Assembly (NCBI GenBank): GCA_964588305.1
Contig: CAZPOP010000001.1
Coordinates: 56,736 to 120,735 of the forward strand
Reading direction: 5' to 3'
DNA: 64,000 bases
Source: an uncultured Ignavibacteria bacterium
GTDB taxonomy: Bacteria > Zixibacteria > MSB-5A5 > SM1-73
Both the position numbers and the translations under genes were made by a program. Every line of letters starts with the position of its first letter. Position 1 is the first letter of the stretch. The notes beneath the pieces are model-generated. The model had not been told where the DNA came from. It saw only the letters and a program-made list of their open reading frames with translations, and searched no databases. Of the stretch, positions 3,560-63,144 are shown one piece after another.

Positions 3560-4315
3560 ATGGAAGGGTTGTATTTTTTGGCTCCCGTGATTTTCTTTGT
3601 TATTTCCTTTGTCTTCTCTATGTTAGGAATGGGAGGGAGTCAGCTTTACGTTCCAATCCTCTATTGGTTGGGAATGGATTTTAAAAGCCAAGCCATACCC
3701 CTGGGACTTTTACTAAATTTATGTGTTCAATTGTCTGCCTTTACCACGTATTCAAGAAAAAGACTGGTGAAGCCCCAGATCGCCTTACCTTTCGCCTTGA
3801 TGATGGTTATCTTTGCCCCATTAGGAGCGATGCTTAACTTTGGGTTGCCGGCTAAACCTATAATATTTCTATTTGCAGTATTTACGCTTTTAGCCGCCAT
3901 TTTGGTTTTGTCCGGCTGGAAGCCTGAAAAAGGAAAATGGAGCAAAAATAGGGAGATGACAATAACTTTGGTCATTGGCTGTGTTCTGGGATTTCTGGTG
4001 GGGCTTATTGGCCGGGGCGGAGGGTCTTTTGTCGTCCCTACACTTCTTATTTTGGGTCTTGATCCTAAAAATGCTGCTGGAACTTCTACCCTCATCGTCA
4101 GCTTTTCATCGGCTACAGGCTTTGTGGCACATTTGCTCAAAGCCAGACTGGATTTCTGGGTAACTTTCCTAACAATTATCTGTGTGATTTCAGGGTCCCA
4201 GATCGGCTCTGGTTTGATGGCTACTAGATTGAAATCACAAACTATAAAAAAGGTTTTTGGAATCGTTTTGATTTTTGTTGCAACCCTACTTTTGAAGGAT
4301 GTGTTTTTGAAGTGA
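3560..4315 (+). CDS. TauE/SafE (TSUP) family membrane permease
   Basis: Polytopic membrane protein with duplicated halves and G-rich motifs (GMGGS.., GRGGGSF) typical of DUF81/TSUP. Confidence 0.65.
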   Translation: MEGLYFLAPVIFFVISFVFSMLGMGGSQLYVPILYWLGMDFKSQAIPLGLLLNLCVQLSAFTTYSRKRLVKPQIALPFALMMVIFAPLGAMLNFGLPAKPIIFLFAVFTLLAAILVLSGWKPEKGKWSKNREMTITLVIGCVLGFLVGLIGRGGGSFVVPTLLILGLDPKNAAGTSTLIVSFSSATGFVAHLLKARLDFWVTFLTIICVISGSQIGSGLMATRLKSQTIKKVFGIVLIFVATLLLKDVFLK

Positions 4316-5247
4316 AAACCATAGTCTATGGACCGGTTCCCTCCCGAAGATTGGGGATTTCTCTGGGAGTGGACATCGTTCCTTACAAGATCTGCAGCTA
4401 TGACTGCATTTACTGCCAGTTGGGGAAGACCACAAATCAAACCACCCAGAGGGGATCCTTTATTCCAGTCGACTCCGTGATAAAGGAGATAAAGGAAGTG
4501 ATAGATCAAAACAGCGACATTGACTACATAACCTTTTCCGGATCAGGTGAGCCAACTTTGAACAAAGACATTGGCCGGATGATAGAAAAGGTAAGGAGAA
4601 TTACCCCCATTCCGGTCGCTGTTCTGACCAATGGATCTTTGCTGTGGGACCGTGAGGTCAGAGAGGATCTGGGCGAGGCGGATCTGGTTGTCCCTTCGTT
4701 GGATGCCGTTTCAGAGAAGGTCTTTCGAAAAGTCAACCGTCCGGTTGCGGGTTTGGGAATTGAAAAGGTTCTACGTGGATTGAAAACCTTTTGCGCGCAG
4801 TTCAAGGGAAAGATCTATTTAGAGATCATGCTGGTCAAAACCGCCAATGACTCTGAAGAGGAAATCGGGGAGATCAATCGATTCGTTAAGAACCTCAGGA
4901 TCGATGAGATTCAGCTTAACACGGTGGTCCGCCCTCCAGGTGATCCAGATGCAAGGCCGCTGAACCAAGAGGAACTGAACGAAGTCAGAAGTTTGTTCGA
5001 TCCGAAGCTCAAAGTGGAAGTGATCGCCAATTTCAAGAGGGAAACAAGCAAGGCTTACCACAAGGATCTGGAGCAGGCAATAATTGAGCTCGTAAGAAGG
5101 AGGCCCACGAAGAAAGAGGAGATGGCCGTTTCCTTAGGAGTCCATCCTAATGAGATTGCCAAGTATTTGCAGGTTTTGGAGGATAATAGAACAATCAAAA
5201 GATCATGGGGCAAGGAGAAGTCGACCGTTTATTTTGTAATCGCTTAA
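4312..5247 (+). CDS. Radical SAM protein (COG0731-like) with C-terminal winged-helix-like region
   Basis: CSYDCIYC is a Cx3Cx2C motif after GPVPSRRLGISLGVD. The GTG start overlaps the TGA of the upstream gene by 4 nt. Confidence 0.7.
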   Translation: MKTIVYGPVPSRRLGISLGVDIVPYKICSYDCIYCQLGKTTNQTTQRGSFIPVDSVIKEIKEVIDQNSDIDYITFSGSGEPTLNKDIGRMIEKVRRITPIPVAVLTNGSLLWDREVREDLGEADLVVPSLDAVSEKVFRKVNRPVAGLGIEKVLRGLKTFCAQFKGKIYLEIMLVKTANDSEEEIGEINRFVKNLRIDEIQLNTVVRPPGDPDARPLNQEELNEVRSLFDPKLKVEVIANFKRETSKAYHKDLEQAIIELVRRRPTKKEEMAVSLGVHPNEIAKYLQVLEDNRTIKRSWGKEKSTVYFVIA

Positions 5248-5259
5248 CGGAGGAAGGCG

Positions 5260-6147
5260 ATGAAAACCTATTTAGATTGTGTCCCTTGCATAATTGAACA
5301 GACAATTAAAGCTGCCAGAGATTTGACCCAAGATTTGGAAAAACAGGAAAGCCTGTTACAGAAGGTATTGGAGATCCTCAGCAACATCTCCTACAACCAG
5401 TCTCCACCTTATCTGGGGAGAGAGGCACATCGGGTGATCCGCTCCATTCTGAATAATCCCGATCCTTATTCAAAACTGAAAAGACGGTTCAACCAGGTGG
5501 GGAAAGAGCTCTTTCCTTCCTTGCAGGAGCGGGTCAATGATTCGAAAGACCCGTTCGCCCAAGCAGTGAAGCTGGCCATTGCCGGTAACATCATCGATTT
5601 TGGTCCCCCGCATCACTTCGAGTTGAGAGAAACCATTGACAAAGCTTTGAAGGCGAAGCCTGCCATTGACCATACCGAGAGTTTAAGAGAAGACATAGAG
5701 TCAGCCTCGACCATCCTCTATCTGGGAGACAATGCTGGGGAGACCTTCTTTGACAGGATACTGATCGAACAAATGCCGGCCAAGGAGATTTACTTTGGGG
5801 TGAGGGGCAGTCCGGTGATAAACGATGCCACCTCGGAGGATGCCTACTGGGCGGGATTAGACAAAAGGACCAAGATCATCTCCAATGGCTCGGATGCCCC
5901 AGGAACCATACTTGAAGATTGTTCTAATGAATTCCAGGACCTCTTTGCCAGATCCGATCTGGTGATCGCCAAGGGACACGGAAACTACGAAACCTTAAGT
6001 GAGGTGCAGGGGAAAAGACTCTATTTCCTTCTCATGGTGAAGTGCGAAACCATAGCCAAGGATATTGGCTGTTCGGTCGGGGAATTCGTGGTCAAGAAAA
6101 CAGAGAGCGTCTTGGAGCCAAAGGCGCAGGCGCTTGGGAAAAAATGA
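5260..6147 (+). CDS. DUF89 / ARMT1-like (damage-control phosphatase family) protein
   Basis: The N-terminus MKTYLDCVPCIIEQ and overall size are typical of DUF89. RBS GGAGGAAGG is upstream. Confidence 0.6.
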   Translation: MKTYLDCVPCIIEQTIKAARDLTQDLEKQESLLQKVLEILSNISYNQSPPYLGREAHRVIRSILNNPDPYSKLKRRFNQVGKELFPSLQERVNDSKDPFAQAVKLAIAGNIIDFGPPHHFELRETIDKALKAKPAIDHTESLREDIESASTILYLGDNAGETFFDRILIEQMPAKEIYFGVRGSPVINDATSEDAYWAGLDKRTKIISNGSDAPGTILEDCSNEFQDLFARSDLVIAKGHGNYETLSEVQGKRLYFLLMVKCETIAKDIGCSVGEFVVKKTESVLEPKAQALGKK

Positions 6148-6395
6148 GACCTGACTTTTGGCCGAAGCCGTGCCGTATCGGGGGAATATTGGCAAAGGAC
6201 GTCCCATCTCTCCAGGCAAGGGTCGAGGGTTAGGGTACTCGCAACCAACTGTTCATTCAGAATCCGAGGCAAGGACCTTATTCTATTGCCCGACTTTGTC
6301 GGGTCACTCAGAGGCACTTCCCTTTTTGGAATTTACACACAACTCGAAGTAAATCCACACAGACGATAACCTCCAAACAAAGCCAAGAAAACCTA

Positions 6396-6424
6396 TTGAC
6401 TTTCGTAAGAGAATAAGATAAGAT
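6396..6424 (+). promoter_or_regulatory. Candidate sigma70-like promoter upstream of the YdiJ-like oxidoreductase
   Basis: TTGACT, then 17 nt, then TAAGAT, about 95 nt upstream of ATG 6519. Confidence 0.3.
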
Positions 6425-6518
6425 TGGAATAGGGAAAACCAATTTATCTTGGAGTCGGACAGAAACACGAATGTCATTAAGGAAGTTTCTTCGATAATCT
6501 TTTACAAGAGAATATAAT

Positions 6519-9871: not shown

Positions 9872-10852
9872 ATGCTGAAAACGACAGTTGTGGGAAACTA
9901 TCCTAAGATAACGGCGGACAAATCTGCTCCCAATCTCAGATCGGCGCTCAACAAGTTCGATCGAAATAAGATTTCCGAGGAGGAACTGGAGAGGGTTTAT
10001 CAGGAAACTATCCAGAGAGTGATAAGAGAACAGGAAGAGGCAGGCGTGGACCTGATCACCGACGGACAGATCAGGTGGGATGATCCGGTTACTCCATTTG
10101 CCAGAAATATCGATGGACTGGAGGTTGGTGGTTTGATTCGTTTTTTTGACAACAATGTTTATTACCGAAGACCTGTGGTCAAATCCAAGCTGGCATTCAA
10201 GGACTATTCAACCGTGGAGGAATTTGCATTCTTAAAACGGAACTCAACTAAGGAAGTCAAAGCAGTCATTGTCGGCCCGTTCACCTTTGCCAACCTTGCA
10301 AAGGATGAATACTATAACGACATTGACAAACTCACTTTGGATCTGGCCGAAATCCTGAAAAAAGAGGCAAAGAAGTTAGAGGAAGCGGGTGCAGAATTTA
10401 TTCAGATCGATGAGCCTTCATTATGCTTTTCACCCGAGAAGATCGATCTGGCAAATCAAGCAATTAAGGTCATTACCGACGGTTTGAAGGCCAAGACCTT
10501 CTTGTACCTTTATTTCGGGGGGATCAAAAATCTGATTCCCGCACCTTTTGATTTCCCGGTCGACGGGATCGCAATCGACGTTGTCAGCAGACCTGAGAAT
10601 CTTGATCTTATATTGGAAGGTTCATTTGACAAGGAACTTGTCTTGGGCTGTTTGGATGCAAGGAACACAAGGTTGGAGGAAGAAGAGGAGCTTTTGAAGC
10701 TATTCCAGAGAACAACTCAGAAGATTTCCAGTGAGAGGATATACGTCAGTCCATCCTGCGGGCTGGAGTTTCTGCCTCATGAGGCGGCACTCGCGAAATT
10801 GAAAAGGATGGTGCAGTCGGCAAAGAAGTTCAATCTCGGCGGAGACGATTGA
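9872..10852 (+). CDS. MetE-like (UROD/MetE superfamily) protein lacking the zinc-ligand His-x-Cys; resembles MetE N-terminal (folate-binding) domain
   Basis: Clear similarity to cobalamin-independent methionine synthase domains (VGNYPK, DGQIRWDD, IQIDEP, SPSCGLEF). The position of the HxC zinc motif reads FLYLYFGG. Confidence 0.6.
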   Translation: MLKTTVVGNYPKITADKSAPNLRSALNKFDRNKISEEELERVYQETIQRVIREQEEAGVDLITDGQIRWDDPVTPFARNIDGLEVGGLIRFFDNNVYYRRPVVKSKLAFKDYSTVEEFAFLKRNSTKEVKAVIVGPFTFANLAKDEYYNDIDKLTLDLAEILKKEAKKLEEAGAEFIQIDEPSLCFSPEKIDLANQAIKVITDGLKAKTFLYLYFGGIKNLIPAPFDFPVDGIAIDVVSRPENLDLILEGSFDKELVLGCLDARNTRLEEEEELLKLFQRTTQKISSERIYVSPSCGLEFLPHEAALAKLKRMVQSAKKFNLGGDD

Positions 10853-25391: not shown

Positions 25392-27755
25392 CTAGAAGGT
25401 GGTTCCGAACTGGAAATGGGGTCTCCACTCACCCTTTTCCGGGTGATCGAATCCGTAGGCAAAATCAAATCCGATTACTCCCATGCCAGGCACCACCAAT
25501 CTGGCTCCCAAACCGGCAGATCTGAAAAGATCAAGGTCTGATTTGTGTCTTAAGGCAAAAGGTCGGATGGCCCGCCCCGACATCCAGGCGTTGCCCGCGT
25601 CGGCAAACAATAGCGCGTAAATCTGCTGCTCAACTATGGGGAATTGATATTCCACGTTGTAAACTAAAACCGACCGTCCCCTCAGAAGATTTCCTTCCGA
25701 GTCAGCCGGGCCAATGGATCCATCAGAGTATCCCCGGATCATTCCGTCTGGATCAGTCCCGCCGGGCGAGAAGCGTTCGCTGTAAACCTCCGCAGCTTCC
25801 CTGTCTTTCCCATCCAATACCCCCACCCTCGCGTGAAAGGCAAGGACGAATTTCCAAAAGGTCGTCAGATAGTATTTGGCCTCGAATATGTGTTTGTGAT
25901 AGGATGAGTTTCCTCCCAAGGCCTCTGCAGCTAATTCGGTGTACCAGGAGAGGACCGACCCCCGGGTGGCAAACTGAGGCAGGTCTCTTGAATCCCTGAG
26001 AAAGTTAATGGAGGTGCTTGCGCTTCTGCGAGGCCATTCGACTAAGGCAAGAGGATTAACGTAACCGGAAGGATTGATGAATTCAGACACATGATCAAAA
26101 GACAGGGGGAGATTTACCTGCCAAAGGGGATGAGAAGGACGAGTGATGTCGTAAGCGAAATCGTAGTATCTCAACTTCTCCAGCCGGTAGCGCCAATAGA
26201 CTCTGAAAAAATCGTCCGGCCAGGATAACCTTCTCCCCAACCTCAAGGAGAATCCTCTGGTCTCTTCGGTAAATTCATCGTACCAGTCCCGGTTTATCTG
26301 ATAGATGTCGAAGCCCACCGACGTGGGGGTGTCTCTGAACCAGGGCTCGGTGAAGCTGATCTCCACGGTCTGCCTGGTTTTACCGAAGTCCCAGTTTAGT
26401 TTGGCGCTTTGACCATTTCCGAAAAGATTGGGGATTCCCAACCCTATGTTTCCCACCAATTTGTCGCGGGCGCTGTATCCGGCTCCGAACATGATCTGCC
26501 CGGTGGGTTTCTCTTCGACTCTTATGGAGAGGTCGATGTCGCCATTCTCCAGAACCTCGTAATCCGGCTCCACATTGGCAAAGTAGTTGAGATACATCAC
26601 GTCCCTGATGCTGCGCATGAGAGATGAACGTCTAAACTTCTGCCCCGGAAGAAGGGAAAGCTCTCTCCGGATCACCTTCTCCTTGGTCTTGGTATTACCC
26701 TGGATATTTACCATCCGGACGTTCGCCGGCATCCCCTCGGTTATGTGATAATCGACGTTCACCATCGTATCCCGGGTGGTAGTCTTGTCCTCTATCACCA
26801 CATAGATGTGGCCCTCCTCCTGATAAAGCGAATAGATGTTGCCCAGAGTCTCTTCATATTTCTCTTGATTGTAGATTTCATCCTTTTTGAATTTGACCAG
26901 CTTATTCAGCTTTTCTTCAGAAAAAAGTTTGTTCCCTTCCCAGCTGGCCTCTCCGAACTTATACCTGTCCCCTTCGGTCAAGAGAATCTGGATATACATG
27001 TCCTTGGGGGAAAGACTATCATACCAAATCGAGTCAGAGATTACACCCGCATCCAAATATCCCTCTTTTTTGTAGAATTCTACGATTTTCTCCTTATCCT
27101 CTTCGAATTCCTCGGGGTCAAACCCGCCGGAGCGCCACCAGCGATCTTCCTTGTTCTTCATCTGCTTTCTGATCTTTTTGTCTGTGAAGACCTGGTTGCC
27201 TTCGACGGTGATCCTTTTGATACTTACCTTTTTGCCCTCCTTTATCTTGAACTCCAAAGCCACTTCCCCTTCTTTGTCCGTCTCCAGAACCTGAGATTGG
27301 ATTTCAGCGGCAAGATAACCTTTCTCCCTGTAGATTGATCTTATGTTCTCCACGTCAGCCTTCACGTCCATGGGGCTTATTACCTTGCCCAAAGTGGTAT
27401 TAAGCTTCTCTTTGATTTCGTCTGTTTTTATTTTTTTATTTCCCGATATCTGGACGCTGGACGCTCTGGGATATTCTTTTACCTTGAAGTAAAGCTGCAT
27501 CCCCTCCTCTGTCTCTTTGCCTTGGATCTGAACGTCGGAGAAGAGTTTAATGGCGTATAACCTCTTGATGGCATTCTGGATTGCGGCTGGGTCCAACTCC
27601 GAGCCAGCTTTCAGCCCCGATGCATTCATAATCAGGGACCTGTCCACAGTCCGGTTGCCCTGCACCTCTATCTTGGAGATAACCACGGCGGAGGAGATTT
27701 GGCAACACAATGCGGAGAGGAAAAAGGTGAGTGCGAAAAAAATCCTTCTTAGCAT
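25392..27755 (-). CDS. bamA: Outer membrane protein assembly factor BamA
   Basis: Signal peptide, POTRA repeats, C-terminal beta-barrel ending in FQFGTTF. 787 aa. Confidence 0.85.
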   Translation of the reverse strand: MLRRIFFALTFFLSALCCQISSAVVISKIEVQGNRTVDRSLIMNASGLKAGSELDPAAIQNAIKRLYAIKLFSDVQIQGKETEEGMQLYFKVKEYPRASSVQISGNKKIKTDEIKEKLNTTLGKVISPMDVKADVENIRSIYREKGYLAAEIQSQVLETDKEGEVALEFKIKEGKKVSIKRITVEGNQVFTDKKIRKQMKNKEDRWWRSGGFDPEEFEEDKEKIVEFYKKEGYLDAGVISDSIWYDSLSPKDMYIQILLTEGDRYKFGEASWEGNKLFSEEKLNKLVKFKKDEIYNQEKYEETLGNIYSLYQEEGHIYVVIEDKTTTRDTMVNVDYHITEGMPANVRMVNIQGNTKTKEKVIRRELSLLPGQKFRRSSLMRSIRDVMYLNYFANVEPDYEVLENGDIDLSIRVEEKPTGQIMFGAGYSARDKLVGNIGLGIPNLFGNGQSAKLNWDFGKTRQTVEISFTEPWFRDTPTSVGFDIYQINRDWYDEFTEETRGFSLRLGRRLSWPDDFFRVYWRYRLEKLRYYDFAYDITRPSHPLWQVNLPLSFDHVSEFINPSGYVNPLALVEWPRRSASTSINFLRDSRDLPQFATRGSVLSWYTELAAEALGGNSSYHKHIFEAKYYLTTFWKFVLAFHARVGVLDGKDREAAEVYSERFSPGGTDPDGMIRGYSDGSIGPADSEGNLLRGRSVLVYNVEYQFPIVEQQIYALLFADAGNAWMSGRAIRPFALRHKSDLDLFRSAGLGARLVVPGMGVIGFDFAYGFDHPEKGEWRPHFQFGTTF

Positions 27756-27896
27756 CTATTCTTTACCCGATAGTTGCTGACTCGGATTGGCAAGCCCCGC
27801 CAGAGCGGGATCTACGACTTCAGCTTAACCGTTTTAACCTCTGGAAAATAAATCGTCTTAGTCCGCCTAAAGGGCGTCTTCAAAGGGCCCGACGCA

Positions 27897-27963
27897 TCAT
27901 TCTGAGGAAACCCACCAGAGGTGTGAACCGCATGCTGCACACCAAGGGTGGGGTCAGAATGAC
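27897..27963. repeat. MITE/BIME-like element bounded by TCATTCTGAGG ... GGTCAGAATGAC inverted termini
   Basis: Inverted termini enclose an internal imperfect hairpin (CCACCAGAGGTGTG...CACACCAAGGGTGG). Lies between rplU and bamA. Confidence 0.6.
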
Positions 27964-28075: not shown

Positions 28076-28390
28076 TTACAAAGGCGCGTGTATTTTGTTG
28101 ATCCTGACCTCGGTATACTGCTGCCTGTGACCTTTCTTTCTTCTATACTTCACTCTCCGTTTGAATTTAAAGACGGTGATTTTTTCAGCTTTTCCTTGGG
28201 ACAAGACTTCTCCTTCGACCTTGGCGTCATTCACGTAAGGCGCGCCTATCAAAGGTTTCTCTCCGCCGACCAACAGGACTTTGTCGAAGGTGATCTTATC
28301 CTTCGGTTTTGCTCCCAACCGGGGAATCCGAACCTTTTCTCCCTCTTTGACGTTGAACTGAAATCCCCCGCTTTCCACAATGGCGTACAT
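28076..28390 (-). CDS. rplU: 50S ribosomal protein L21
   Basis: MYAIVESGGFQFNV...KFKRRVKYRRKKGHRQQYTEVRI. Confidence 0.9.
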   Translation of the reverse strand: MYAIVESGGFQFNVKEGEKVRIPRLGAKPKDKITFDKVLLVGGEKPLIGAPYVNDAKVEGEVLSQGKAEKITVFKFKRRVKYRRKKGHRQQYTEVRINKIHAPL

Positions 28391-32931: not shown

Positions 32932-33149
32932 GACTCCTCCGAAAATTAGAAATTCAAAAAGAAAAATTCGAAAATTCCATCAAAAGATAAAAATCGTTGT
33001 TTAAGCAATGTTCTTTTCAAAATACCAAGTACCAACAGACGTTTTGCGCTTCTTCACAAACCAGGTGTAGGCACGCATATGGGTGCCAGACCAGGTCATG
33101 AAGTCGTAGCTTCTATAAATATTAATCTTCAATTTTGAATTGCAATTTT

Positions 33150-33224
33150 GCACTTCGTGCTGCCCTTCGGTTCCGCATTTCGTCCTGCCCTTCGGTCCCG
33201 CATTTCGTCCTGCCCTTCGGTCCC
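33150..33224. repeat. Three tandem copies of a 25-nt unit (GCATTTCGTCCTGCCCTTCGGTCCC)
   Basis: Direct tandem repeats in the tgt-yajC intergenic region. The first copy is slightly diverged. Confidence 0.85.
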
Positions 33225-33225
33225 G

Positions 33226-33299
33226 AGACCTCAGGGTCGAGGGAAGACTCAATGTCGAAGGAAGACCTCAGGGTCGAGGGAAGACTCAGTGTCGAAGGA
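33226..33299. repeat. Two tandem copies of a 37-nt unit (AGACCTCAGGGTCGAGGGAAGACTCARTGTCGAAGGA)
   Basis: Immediately follows the 25-nt array. One A/G difference between copies. Confidence 0.85.
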
Positions 33300-33324
33300 C
33301 ATTTTGCTTTTTCAGTTTTCAATT

Positions 33325-34536
<1,212 letters not shown>

Positions 34537-34584
34537 TCAAGGCGAGTCTCCGGTCGTTAGAAACCCCTTGAACTCTCGAAAGAT

Positions 34585-34671
34585 GTCATTCTGATCCCGC
34601 CGAGGCGGGAGAAGAATCTAAAACTTATGACATATTTAATTCATTAGATTCTTCACTTCGTTCAGAATGAC
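34585..34671. repeat. MITE/BIME-like element: GTCATTCTGA...GAAGAATCT unit and its inverted copy
   Basis: Left unit carries an inserted GC hairpin CCCGCCgagGCGGG. Right unit is AGATTCTTCacttcgTTCAGAATGAC. Lies in the tgt-downstream intergenic region. Confidence 0.65.
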
Positions 34672-34771
34672 AGAAGTGATATTTTCATCGTTGTAGCGTC
34701 CCGCCTTTGGCGGGATTACCCGCCACATCTCTGGGTTCGGGGTGAGGGCACCCCGAAACAACGGTAGCTAT

Positions 34772-35432: not shown

Positions 35433-35472
35433 GTCAAGCAGTCCCCCGCCTCTGGCGGGAGACATGCTTGAC
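35433..35472. repeat. Hairpin element GTCAAGCA...TGCTTGAC carrying an internal CCCGCCtctGGCGGG hairpin
   Basis: 8-bp outer stem plus 6-bp GC inner stem. The same inner hairpin occurs in the GTCATTCTGA family. Confidence 0.6.
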
Positions 35473-48271: not shown

Positions 48272-48339
48272 TATCTTAAGAAAACCCCGAGGCATAAAGG
48301 CTCGGCTGCGCGATAATATGAGGAAAACATGATGACCGT

Positions 48340-48412
48340 GTCATTCTGAGCCCCGCCTCTGGCGGGACGAAGAATCTCAAAAGACGAGATGCTTCGCTTC
48401 GCTCAGCATGAC
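48340..48412. repeat. MITE/BIME-like element of the same family (GTCATTCTGAG...CTCAGCATGAC)
   Basis: Left unit has the CCCCGCCtctGGCGGG insert. Right unit is GAGATGCTTCgcttcGCTCAGCATGAC, with a compensatory T>G / A>C pair relative to the left unit. Confidence 0.65.
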
Positions 48413-48442
48413 GACTGCCTTTCGCTTCAGTGTTATTTATGA

Positions 48443-56827: not shown

Positions 56828-56857
56828 ATCGAAAAATCTCCTCTATTACTTTCATCT

Positions 56858-56908
56858 GTAGCGGAGGTCTTCAGACCTCCATTGTGGAAAGCTGAAGCTT
56901 TCCGCTAC
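56858..56908. repeat. Composite structured element: outer stem GTAGCGGA/TCCGCTAC enclosing two hairpins
   Basis: Inner hairpins are GGAGGTCttcaGACCTCC and GGAAAGCtgaaGCTTTCC. Lies between purN and the MNT gene. Confidence 0.55.
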
Positions 56909-57028
56909 ATTTGCCGTTCTGCGTGTATCTGAGGTGGCCAGAAGGCGAGTTGGGCAAAGTATCATAATGATGAAGTCAGATACACTCTCTTGGGTGATGG
57001 ACGATTTTTCACGCCTCCTTTTTTTCTT

Positions 57029-63090: not shown

Positions 63091-63144
63091 CGCGTAGCGG
63101 AGTCTTTATGGCTCCGTGCAGAGGCGTGAAGCCTCTGCTACGCG
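63091..63144. repeat. Composite structured element homologous to 56858..56908
   Basis: Outer stem CGCGTAGC/GCTACGCG. Hairpins are CGGAGtctttatggCTCCG and GCAGAGGCgtgaaGCCTCTGC. The second hairpin covaries with the first copy (GAAAGC/GCTTTC vs AGAGGC/GCCTCT) and keeps the loop yTGAAG. Confidence 0.55.

Follow-up and report, generated by a model that had tools for sequence, protein, structure and literature searches.

We describe three short intergenic palindromes, here called elements A, B and C, in a 64-kb stretch of the genome of an uncultured Zixibacterium (contig CAZPOP010000001.1, positions 56,736 to 120,735 of the forward strand; hereafter the window, numbered from its first base). Their layout resembles that of tagged repetitive extragenic palindromic (REP) hairpins, a class that includes the sites of Ssn-type nucleases, which act on single-stranded DNA (ssDNA). 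All three spacers lie between co-directional minus-strand genes, labelled here by Pfam: a flavin-reductase-like gene and tgt (element A), the gene of a 709-aa repeat protein and coaBC (element B), and rplU and bamA (element C). The elements and their units are as follows.

34584..34672, unstranded: element A, intact head-to-head dimer TGTCATTCTGA...TCAGAATGACA, flavin-reductase-like/tgt spacer
34584..34618, plus strand: element A unit, T-GTC-ATTCT-GA-(TCCCGCC GA GGCGGGA)-GA-AGAAT-C, apical nested CCCGCC/GGCGGG hairpin, GTC tag and tail C intact
34647..34672, minus strand: element A unit, T-GTC-ATTCT-GA-(ACGAAGT)-GA-AGAAT-C, canonical, with C-GAA-G mini-hairpin
48339..48413, unstranded: element B, intact head-to-head heterodimer, 709-aa repeat-protein gene/coaBC spacer
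48339..48376, plus strand: element B unit, T-GTC-ATTCT-GA-(GCCCCGCC TCT GGCGGGAC)-GA-AGAAT-C
48388..48413, minus strand: element B unit, C-GTC-ATGCT-GA-(GCGAAGC)-GA-AGCAT-C, ATGCT subtype, CGTC tag
27896..27963, unstranded: element C, collapsed remnant, outer halves TCATTCTGA/TCAGAATGA around one nested hairpin CCCACC..GGTGTG..CACACC..GGTGGG, rplU/bamA spacer

We observed exactly three plus-strand matches to the nine-mer TCATTCTGA in the window (27897, 34586 and 48341). Its reverse complement, TCAGAATGA, matched twice (27954 and 34662), and the AGCAT-type variant TCAGCATGA matched once, at 48403; none of these nine-mers occurred in the window outside the three loci. The pattern TCATTCTGA-N40-70-TCAGMATGA found the three loci in the window and none in 100 dinucleotide-preserving shuffles. 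A preliminary description of the window, which had reported three intergenic copies with inverted termini, was thus correct on this point. Its termini of 10-11 bp are present, but the conserved terminus is one base longer, with T before GTCAT in 107 of 125 elements of the wider family and A after ATGAC in 103 of 125. Its left end for the copy at 27897 was misread, as this reads ATCATTCTGAG and not GTCATTCTGAG. A looser 11-mer search that allowed two mismatches was uninformative (25 matches in the window, 21.8 expected).

Unit structure and distribution of the family

Elements A and B each consist of two units in inverted, head-to-head orientation with their tags outward. Read 5' to 3' on the strand where it lies forward, whichever of the two that is, the unit is [T/C]GTC - ATNNN - GA - (variable apical part) - GA - N'N'N'AT - C. 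The stem has 5 bp, followed by a tandem GA/GA and then at least 2 bp. Apical loops have 3 nt (GNA) or consist of a nested hairpin of 14-45 nt; overall, the apical part tolerates 3 to >45 nt. The stem five-mers of the four units of A and B are ATTCT/AGAAT in three and ATGCT/AGCAT in one, and the minus-strand units carry the mini-hairpin ACGAAGT or GCGAAGC as their apical part. Both units of both dimers keep the tag, the AT, the GA and the tail C. The plus-strand units hold the GC hairpin CCCGCC-n-GGCGGG (34596-34609 in A, 48352-48366 in B), as the preliminary description had noted; this left-unit variant recurs in at least 120 metagenome stretches. Element C has lost the inner halves GAAGAATC and GATTCTTC and the tail C, one of its tags is mutated to ATC, and only its outer 9-10 nt are common with the other copies.

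Free-standing hairpins with the same CCCGCC-n-GGCGGG motif also occur in the window (34690-34760, 35433-35471 and 27796-27812). One, at 34696-34749, gave a weak, sub-threshold match to the Rfam family whalefall-1 (17 bits, gathering score 37), and one upstream of bamA is kept in the related locus L145 (loci fetched from other genomes or contigs are designated L followed by a number).

We counted conservation at positions that the search pattern left free. The G of the GTC tag was present in 118 of 122 units, and the base before the tag was T in 95 and C in 25 of the 122. The GA-AGAAT closure was found in 100 of 122 units, with C as the next base in 97 of those 100.

Minimum-free-energy folds of either strand, as DNA or as RNA, gave a junction in which the outer halves pair together and the inner halves pair together. 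Heterodimers contradict this junction as the selected structure. Five-mers other than ATTCT were always matched within their own unit (ATCCT/AGGAT, ATGCT/AGCAT, ATTGC/GCAAT, ATTCC/GGAAT, ATTTC/GAAAT). Among dimers defined without a requirement for complementarity, 10 were complementary within units only and none between arms only. Because this unbiased pattern mis-parsed many spacers, only these two clean classes were counted, and we repeated the test on a cleaner sample of 97 distinct elements from metagenomes, scanned with only the left unit as seed. Of these, 57 had a partner (20 ATTCT homodimers, 35 heterodimers and 2 complementary at the outer ends only) and 40 had no recognisable partner. 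The right units of the heterodimers were of subtype ATCCT (18), ACCCT (5), ATGCT (4), ACTCT (3), ATTGC (3) or two others, and all dimers of ATTCT with a right unit of another subtype were internally complementary.

These data show that the selected pairing lies within the unit and not between the arms. The working unit is a single hairpin and not the whole palindrome. The intra-unit pairing proposed in the preliminary description thus holds. Its T>G / A>C pair in the copy at 48340 is real, in the ATGCT/AGCAT unit at 48389-48412. ATGCT recurs as a right partner of ATTCT (4 of 57 partnered elements), so this copy represents a separate subtype and not, as had been suggested, a local compensatory mutation. 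The heterodimer type of element B has close relatives at L272, L168/L180, L209, L257 and L203. Other small hairpins seem to use the apical loop as a landing pad.

The family extends far beyond the three copies and keeps consistent termini, and is not specific to this genome. The termini GTCATTCTGA-N40-70-TCAGAATGAC were found in 16 IMG/VR viral contigs. They also occur in GTDB species genomes, with at least 120 such stretches spread over more than 15 phyla. The GTDB matches include Bacteroidota, Ignavibacteria/Kapabacteria, Chlorobiales, Acidobacteriota, Chloroflexota, Planctomycetota, Verrucomicrobiota, Omnitrophota, Armatimonadetes, Cyanobacteria/Melainabacteria, Bacillota, Patescibacteria, several proteobacterial classes, Campylobacterota and Methylomirabilia. 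Among the carriers are cultivable species such as Chryseobacterium hispalense, Flavobacterium swingsii and Spirosoma profusum. The sequence is near-identical across phyla, with the canonical interior GTCATTCTGA-(GCGAAGC-like)-GAAGAATCT - spacer - AGATTCTTC-(GCTTCGC-like)-TCAGAATGAC in nearly all matches and C-GNA-G, N being free, as the commonest apical loop. The family is intergenic, as only 9 elements overlapped an open reading frame (ORF) of at least 90 aa. Gene contexts (n = 96) were tandem in 54 cases, convergent in 27 and divergent in 15, and the flank logo was A-rich at +1 to +3.

Several searches returned nothing. Across 125 elements there was no target-site duplication of 2-8 bp beyond the permutation level, and neighbour-gene clustering within 600 bp of the same elements gave no recurrent protein family. 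BLAST against 72,556 plasmids and 50,697 phages gave no match. Rfam gave no match at its gathering scores anywhere in the window, the sub-threshold ones being to generic hairpins or miRNAs. No intrinsic terminator was called at the three window sites, and no T-tract follows the elements. Literature searches with sequence strings or peptide read-throughs returned primer and vector matches only.

Three further arrangements were seen. The subfamily closest to the copy at 34585 (L156, L172, L225, L243 and two copies in L228) lies inside a larger element, the outer inverted repeats of which are GAGCCTGTCGAGAAAT ... TTTTCGACAGGCTC, so that homology there extends past the TGTC tags; the 34585 copy has a degraded left part of this outer repeat alone, and the window holds no other outer-repeat copies. 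At L049 3523-3693, a dimer of a different subtype, GTCATTCCGG.../...CGGGAATGAC, that is near the Neisseria NTS sequence (see below) is nested in the spacer of an ATTCT dimer. In the IMG/VR contig L015, forward units and dimers are densely packed at 4000-5400, with a second repeat, CACAAAGTTTCACAAAGAAGGCACAGAGGATCACAGAGAGAAG, interspersed among them.

Relation to tagged repeats and to a bracketed GIY-YIG gene

Two published groups of repeats resemble the unit. CGTC-tagged REPs, defined with families CGTC-1 to -4 by Di Nocera et al. (2013, BMC Genomics; PMC3733652), have the tag CGTC, or TGTC/CCTC, a perfect 8-9 bp stem that starts with complementary A-T, a loop of 4-5 nt and a short unpaired tail whose first base is C. 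They mostly form head-to-head dimers, homodimers as well as heterodimers, with the tags outside and the REPs 20-100 bp apart. They lie between unidirectional or convergent ORFs in five phyla, with some dimers inside larger palindromes, and include Rickettsia RPE-4/-6 as well as Neisseria dRS3. "No dedicated transposase" was reported for them, and no tyrosine transposase was found to be flanked by CGTC repeats; many REPs are argued to be transcribed (PMC3733652). We observed a TGTC tag at 34584, 48339 and 34672 (minus strand) and a CGTC tag at 48413 (minus strand). The A-T stem start, the tail C, the head-to-head arrangement and the presence of both homodimers and heterodimers also agree, as do the intergenic sites between tandem or convergent ORFs (81 of 96 family-wide, three of three in the window). 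This likeness is drawn from the text description of CGTC REPs, and the family here spans more than 15 phyla whereas theirs spans five.

The second group was reported by Chenal et al. (2025, Nat Commun; PMC11893778), in which an extended dRS3 is the NTS, CGTCATTCCCGCGMAVGCGGGAATCYRG, and related motifs are termed SRM. The NTS is bound and cut by SsnA, a 94-aa GIY-YIG protein (cd10448), which acts on ssDNA only and on the forward strand only, cuts a few nt upstream of the motif and does not bind RNA. Binding depends critically on the C that follows the palindrome, and cleavage on the 3 nt that precede it. SRM flank 71% of ssnA homologues, in many phyla, and 19% of the genomes with >200 SRMs have no SsnA homologue. 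SsnA limits transformation in N. meningitidis, and the NTS-ssnA-NTS layout has been likened to an insertion sequence, possibly domesticated (PMC11893778). The NTS, C-GTC-ATTCCCGCG-MAV-GCGGGAAT-C, and the unit here, T-GTC-ATTCTGAGC-GAA-GCGAAGAAT-C, have the same layout, and the conserved unpaired GTC and 3' C of our units coincide with the cleavage- and binding-critical positions of the NTS. Both motifs are intergenic and present in many copies and many phyla. They differ in the stem, which is ATTCT+GA/GA with a tandem G.A step here and ATTCCCG in the NTS, and in the apical part, which is very permissive here and includes nested hairpins. The host here is a Zixibacterium, the subtype is known from its sequence, and the nuclease gene, if present, lies outside the window.

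A small single-domain GIY-YIG gene is bracketed by such motifs in both cases, in our data in genomes other than that of the window. We ran jackhmmer over every ORF of the fetched loci (1.14 Mb), with the E. coli YhbQ sequence as the seed. This returned a single GIY-YIG ORF, at L017 10844-11188 on the minus strand, with a solo forward unit before it and a full dimer after it. Its homologues are single-domain PF01541 proteins of 93-116 aa (~94-111 aa for the bracketed genes likened to ssnA), one of which, P0230 (94 aa), has Y17 and E64 where Neisseria SsnA was mutated. Among the 120 homologues listed, about 60 end in ...RDSSLRSE*, the translation of AGATTCTTCGCTTCGCTCAGAATGA, with the TGA stop within the reverse unit. 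In about 35 others the end is ...NRVSF*, and the TGA of TGTCATTCTGA provides the stop. The stop codon therefore lies inside a unit in ~95 of the 120. In longer gene calls, VILSEAKNLSVTVLA upstream corresponds to the forward unit plus the leader, and the DNA layout in L149, L151 and L152 is TGTCATTCTGAGCGAAGCGAAGAATCTCTCT - ~55-nt leader - ORF - ...AGAGAGATTCTTCGCTTCGCTCAGAATGAca. Bracketed ssn-like genes were thus found in other genomes at L017/L148 and L149-L152. An independent profile search of 752 kb of left-unit metagenome loci gave five clear ssn-like ORFs (L241, L209, L163, L173 and L264), all five bracketed by units, and the downstream unit in L241 has a CCCGCC loop as in the window. 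PDB and NCBIfam gave no sequence match to the GIY-YIG protein, and a viral search with this one protein returned only itself.

In the same genomes, short dimers match the gene-carrying cassette over 33-45 contiguous nt at its 5' end and over ~40 nt at its 3' end; both stretches exceed the 26-nt unit. This is the relation that would be expected of internal-deletion derivatives and a full-length element.

Two GIY-YIG loci deserve separate mention. In L149-L151 the gene is convergent with rng and adjoins rodA-pbp2-mreD-mreC-mreB. At L215 5609-5875 a more distant GIY-YIG ORF runs at its 3' end into a tRNA-like sequence whose own 5' part is duplicated just upstream of the ORF.

Gain, loss and decay in close relatives

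BamA homologues place the organism in the Zixibacteria. We compared the spacers with those of relatives (L143-L145) that keep the gene order flavin reductase-tgt-yajC-def-fmt-rng-rplU-bamA at 83-87% BamA identity. Element A and its neighbouring hairpins are absent from the flavin reductase/tgt spacer of L144 and L145. In the tgt/yajC spacer, L145 has a dimer of its own at 4364-4447, and the window has none there. At the rplU/bamA site orthologous to element C, L143 carries a full two-unit element (6321-6478), each unit of which has a nested hairpin CCCCRCC..GGTGTGCAYCATGCGGTTCACACC..GGGG, present as a direct repeat. Element C corresponds to the left part of the first L143 repeat fused to the second repeat's right part, and is the remnant of a deletion between direct repeats that removed the inner halves and the tail C. 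The preliminary description had taken the interiors of the three copies as different; the interior of C is that of a deletion remnant and not of a third type. The presence, absence and decay of copies between close relatives indicate that copies are gained, lost and degraded on this timescale.

In the two inverted L143 units, the nested hairpin is the same, GGTGTGCAYCATGCGGTTCACACC, and its asymmetric loop is in direct and not in inverted orientation. This suggests a strand-oriented insertion or conversion of apical hairpins.

Contigs from the same population (L001, L002, L004 and L005) are 100% identical in the rplU/bamA spacer, including element C. The spacer upstream of coaBC is also 147 nt in L146 and L147, as compared by length alone. 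A base-exact empty site was found neither in the same-population contigs nor in the relatives, a look-up of the flavin reductase also gave none, and the spacers of relatives at 83-87% BamA identity are too diverged for base-exact insertion boundaries.

Proposed role of the dimers and alternative explanations

Overall, our data indicate that the window sites are head-to-head dimers of TGTC/CGTC-tagged REP hairpins, probably of the Ssn type and cut as ssDNA by Ssn. The three palindromes can then be annotated as two probable ssDNA-nuclease recognition sites and one relic. The element class is already known, from the CGTC REPs of 2013 and the SRM of 2025, and largely explains the observation. The window sites add new members to it, of an ATTCTGA subtype that the published SRM motif misses.

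By analogy with the characterised homologous systems, the working unit would be one DNA hairpin made of an unpaired [T/C]GTC, a stem started by A-T/T-A, the GA/GA, an apical hairpin and an unpaired C. An Ssn protein of ~94 aa would bind this hairpin only in ssDNA and only on the tag-bearing strand, and would cut a few nt 5' of the tag. A head-to-head dimer would place one forward unit at the 5' side of each strand, such that both strands could be cut just outside the element. The Zixibacterium presumably encodes its cognate Ssn elsewhere in the genome, and we predict an Ssn-type gene there. We infer that the dimers spread with the help of Ssn, possibly as internal-deletion derivatives of unit-ssn-unit, and that they may now mark ssDNA for cleavage, for instance single strands that enter the cell or are being replicated.

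A number of observations weigh against this interpretation. Neither the 64-kb window nor 51 kb of syntenic relatives contained an ssn-like ORF, and the cognate nuclease of this organism is therefore putative. The published SRM motif, HGTCWYN(0-2)YYVSBRHN(0-5)WNVSBRGN(0-2)RNCYNB, recognised NTS controls but none of 250 units of the GTDB elements and none of five window units, and had no match in the window; its failures lie in position S, where the units have A in place of C/G, and in the length of the loop. The unit has five Watson-Crick pairs, the GA/GA and a variable hairpin, whereas CGTC REPs have a perfect 8-9 bp stem and a 4-5 nt loop. The link to cd10448 consists only of PF01541, the single-domain size of 93-116 aa and Y17/E64. 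In L149, L150 and L151 the ssn-like gene (10001-10351 of the loci) occupies one conserved chromosomal position, which argues against hopping and agrees with a single-copy gene, possibly domesticated, that is inherited vertically. Finally, the interpretation gives no account of how a plain nuclease would copy the elements.

A stronger proposal is that unit-ssn-unit is autonomously mobile and belongs to a new mechanistic class of element, in which a ~100-aa GIY-YIG ssDNA nuclease does the mobilising. The short dimers would be its non-autonomous internal-deletion derivatives, spread across phyla via ssDNA intermediates and without target duplication. We put this forward tentatively, as an idea that is more likely wrong than right. 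If it is true, the ATTCTGA subtype represents a large uncharted part of the Ssn world. The common ends of dimers and cassette are the type of evidence needed for testing the "domesticated mobile element" idea (PMC11893778).

Another explanation is that the sites are orphan relics, that is, inherited or decaying units with no present function in a genome that has lost the cognate nuclease or was always without it. The lack of an ssn gene in the window and its syntenic relatives agrees with this, as do the collapse of one of the three window copies, the 40 partnerless units among the 97 seeded ones and the 19% of genomes with >200 SRMs that have no SsnA homologue (PMC11893778). Yet every critical position is kept in both units of both intact dimers, and the copy differences at 83-87% BamA identity imply recent gain or loss. 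We consider the relic explanation unlikely.

The hairpins might also act at the RNA level, where they would terminate transcripts, stabilise mRNA or be sites of processing for the flanking co-directional genes, whether in addition to the DNA role or in its place. The location of all three window copies inside co-directional minus-strand gene pairs speaks for this, as do the family-wide contexts (54 tandem, 27 convergent, 15 divergent). Predicted RNA folds are strong (z = -4.7 to -6.8), and transcription has been argued for many REPs (PMC3733652). The absence of a T-tract after the elements and of an Rfam family match stands against an RNA role, and the heterodimers contradict the thermodynamic fold with its outer and inner stems. 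Recognition by Ssn, a protein without RNA binding, accounts for the unpaired GTC and C that are conserved. In addition, the C-GNA-G apical loop belongs to a family of unusually stable DNA mini-hairpins. An RNA-level explanation is therefore improbable in our view.

Mobilisation of the dimers as REPINs by a REP-associated tyrosine transposase (RAYT, of the IS200/IS605 Y1 type) had been implied by the preliminary description, which suggested a search for a cognate enzyme of this type. REPINs, or bacterial interspersed mosaic elements (BIMEs), with RAYT transposases were reportedly described by Bertels and Rainey in 2011 and by Nunvar in 2010. The architecture is the same, with two inverted REP hairpins plus a spacer; both systems have a single-copy gene flanked by repeats and lack target-site duplications, as HUH enzymes predict, and in REPINs, too, the structure recognised is an ssDNA hairpin. 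GTAG heads occur on other hairpins of the window. However, REPIN systems have a GTAG tag and an HUH/Y1 enzyme and their sequences are lineage-specific, whereas the unit here has a TGTC/CGTC tag, is nearly identical across phyla and brackets, in other genomes, a gene for a small Ssn-type GIY-YIG nuclease. No tyrosine transposase was found flanked by CGTC repeats (PMC3733652), and no recurrent neighbour was found within 600 bp of the 125 elements. We regard RAYT mobilisation as very improbable.

A classical MITE (a miniature transposable element with inverted repeats), derived from a DDE insertion sequence via 25-nt terminal inverted repeats, would explain the inverted termini, the dispersal of whole dimers, spacer included, to unrelated sites and the one nested insertion (L049), but is hardly credible given arms that are often non-complementary (heterodimers in 35 of 57), the lack of any transposase gene found next to the units or between them, target-site duplications (2-8 bp) that did not exceed chance in 125 elements and no plasmid or phage match. 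Of the mobile or REP-type family under structural selection that the preliminary description proposed, a REP/BIME-type family under structural constraint stands, and a DDE-type MITE, for which no target-site duplication was found, does not.

Surveys that use the published SRM motif would miss the ATTCTGA subtype, near-identical in more than 15 phyla. Ssn enzymes are under development as ssDNA tools, and new motif/enzyme pairs are of some practical value. The breadth of the subtype, its invisibility to the published motif and the relation between cassette and derivatives are worth passing on; otherwise the interest of the three palindromes is modest.

Other features of the window were also observed. 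Intergenic palindromes at 56857-56909 and 63091-63144 have GTAGCG...CGCTAC ends and two sub-hairpins each (for example TGTAGCGGAGGTCTTCAGACCTCCA / TGGAAAGCTGAAGCTTTCCGCTACA); they look like GTAG-tagged REP dimers, a second REP superfamily of the same genome. In the window, rplU is followed directly by bamA-ompH-lpxD (28076-28390 / 25392-27755) with no adjoining rpmA (L27), as in L143-L145. The tgt/yajC spacer (32932-33324) holds GTCCTTCGAC...CCTGAGGTCT / CGGGACCGAAGGGCAGGACGAA repeats in a long array, some in tandem and some inverted, which differs in copy number from the relative L144, and the L145 sequence at this position is quite different.

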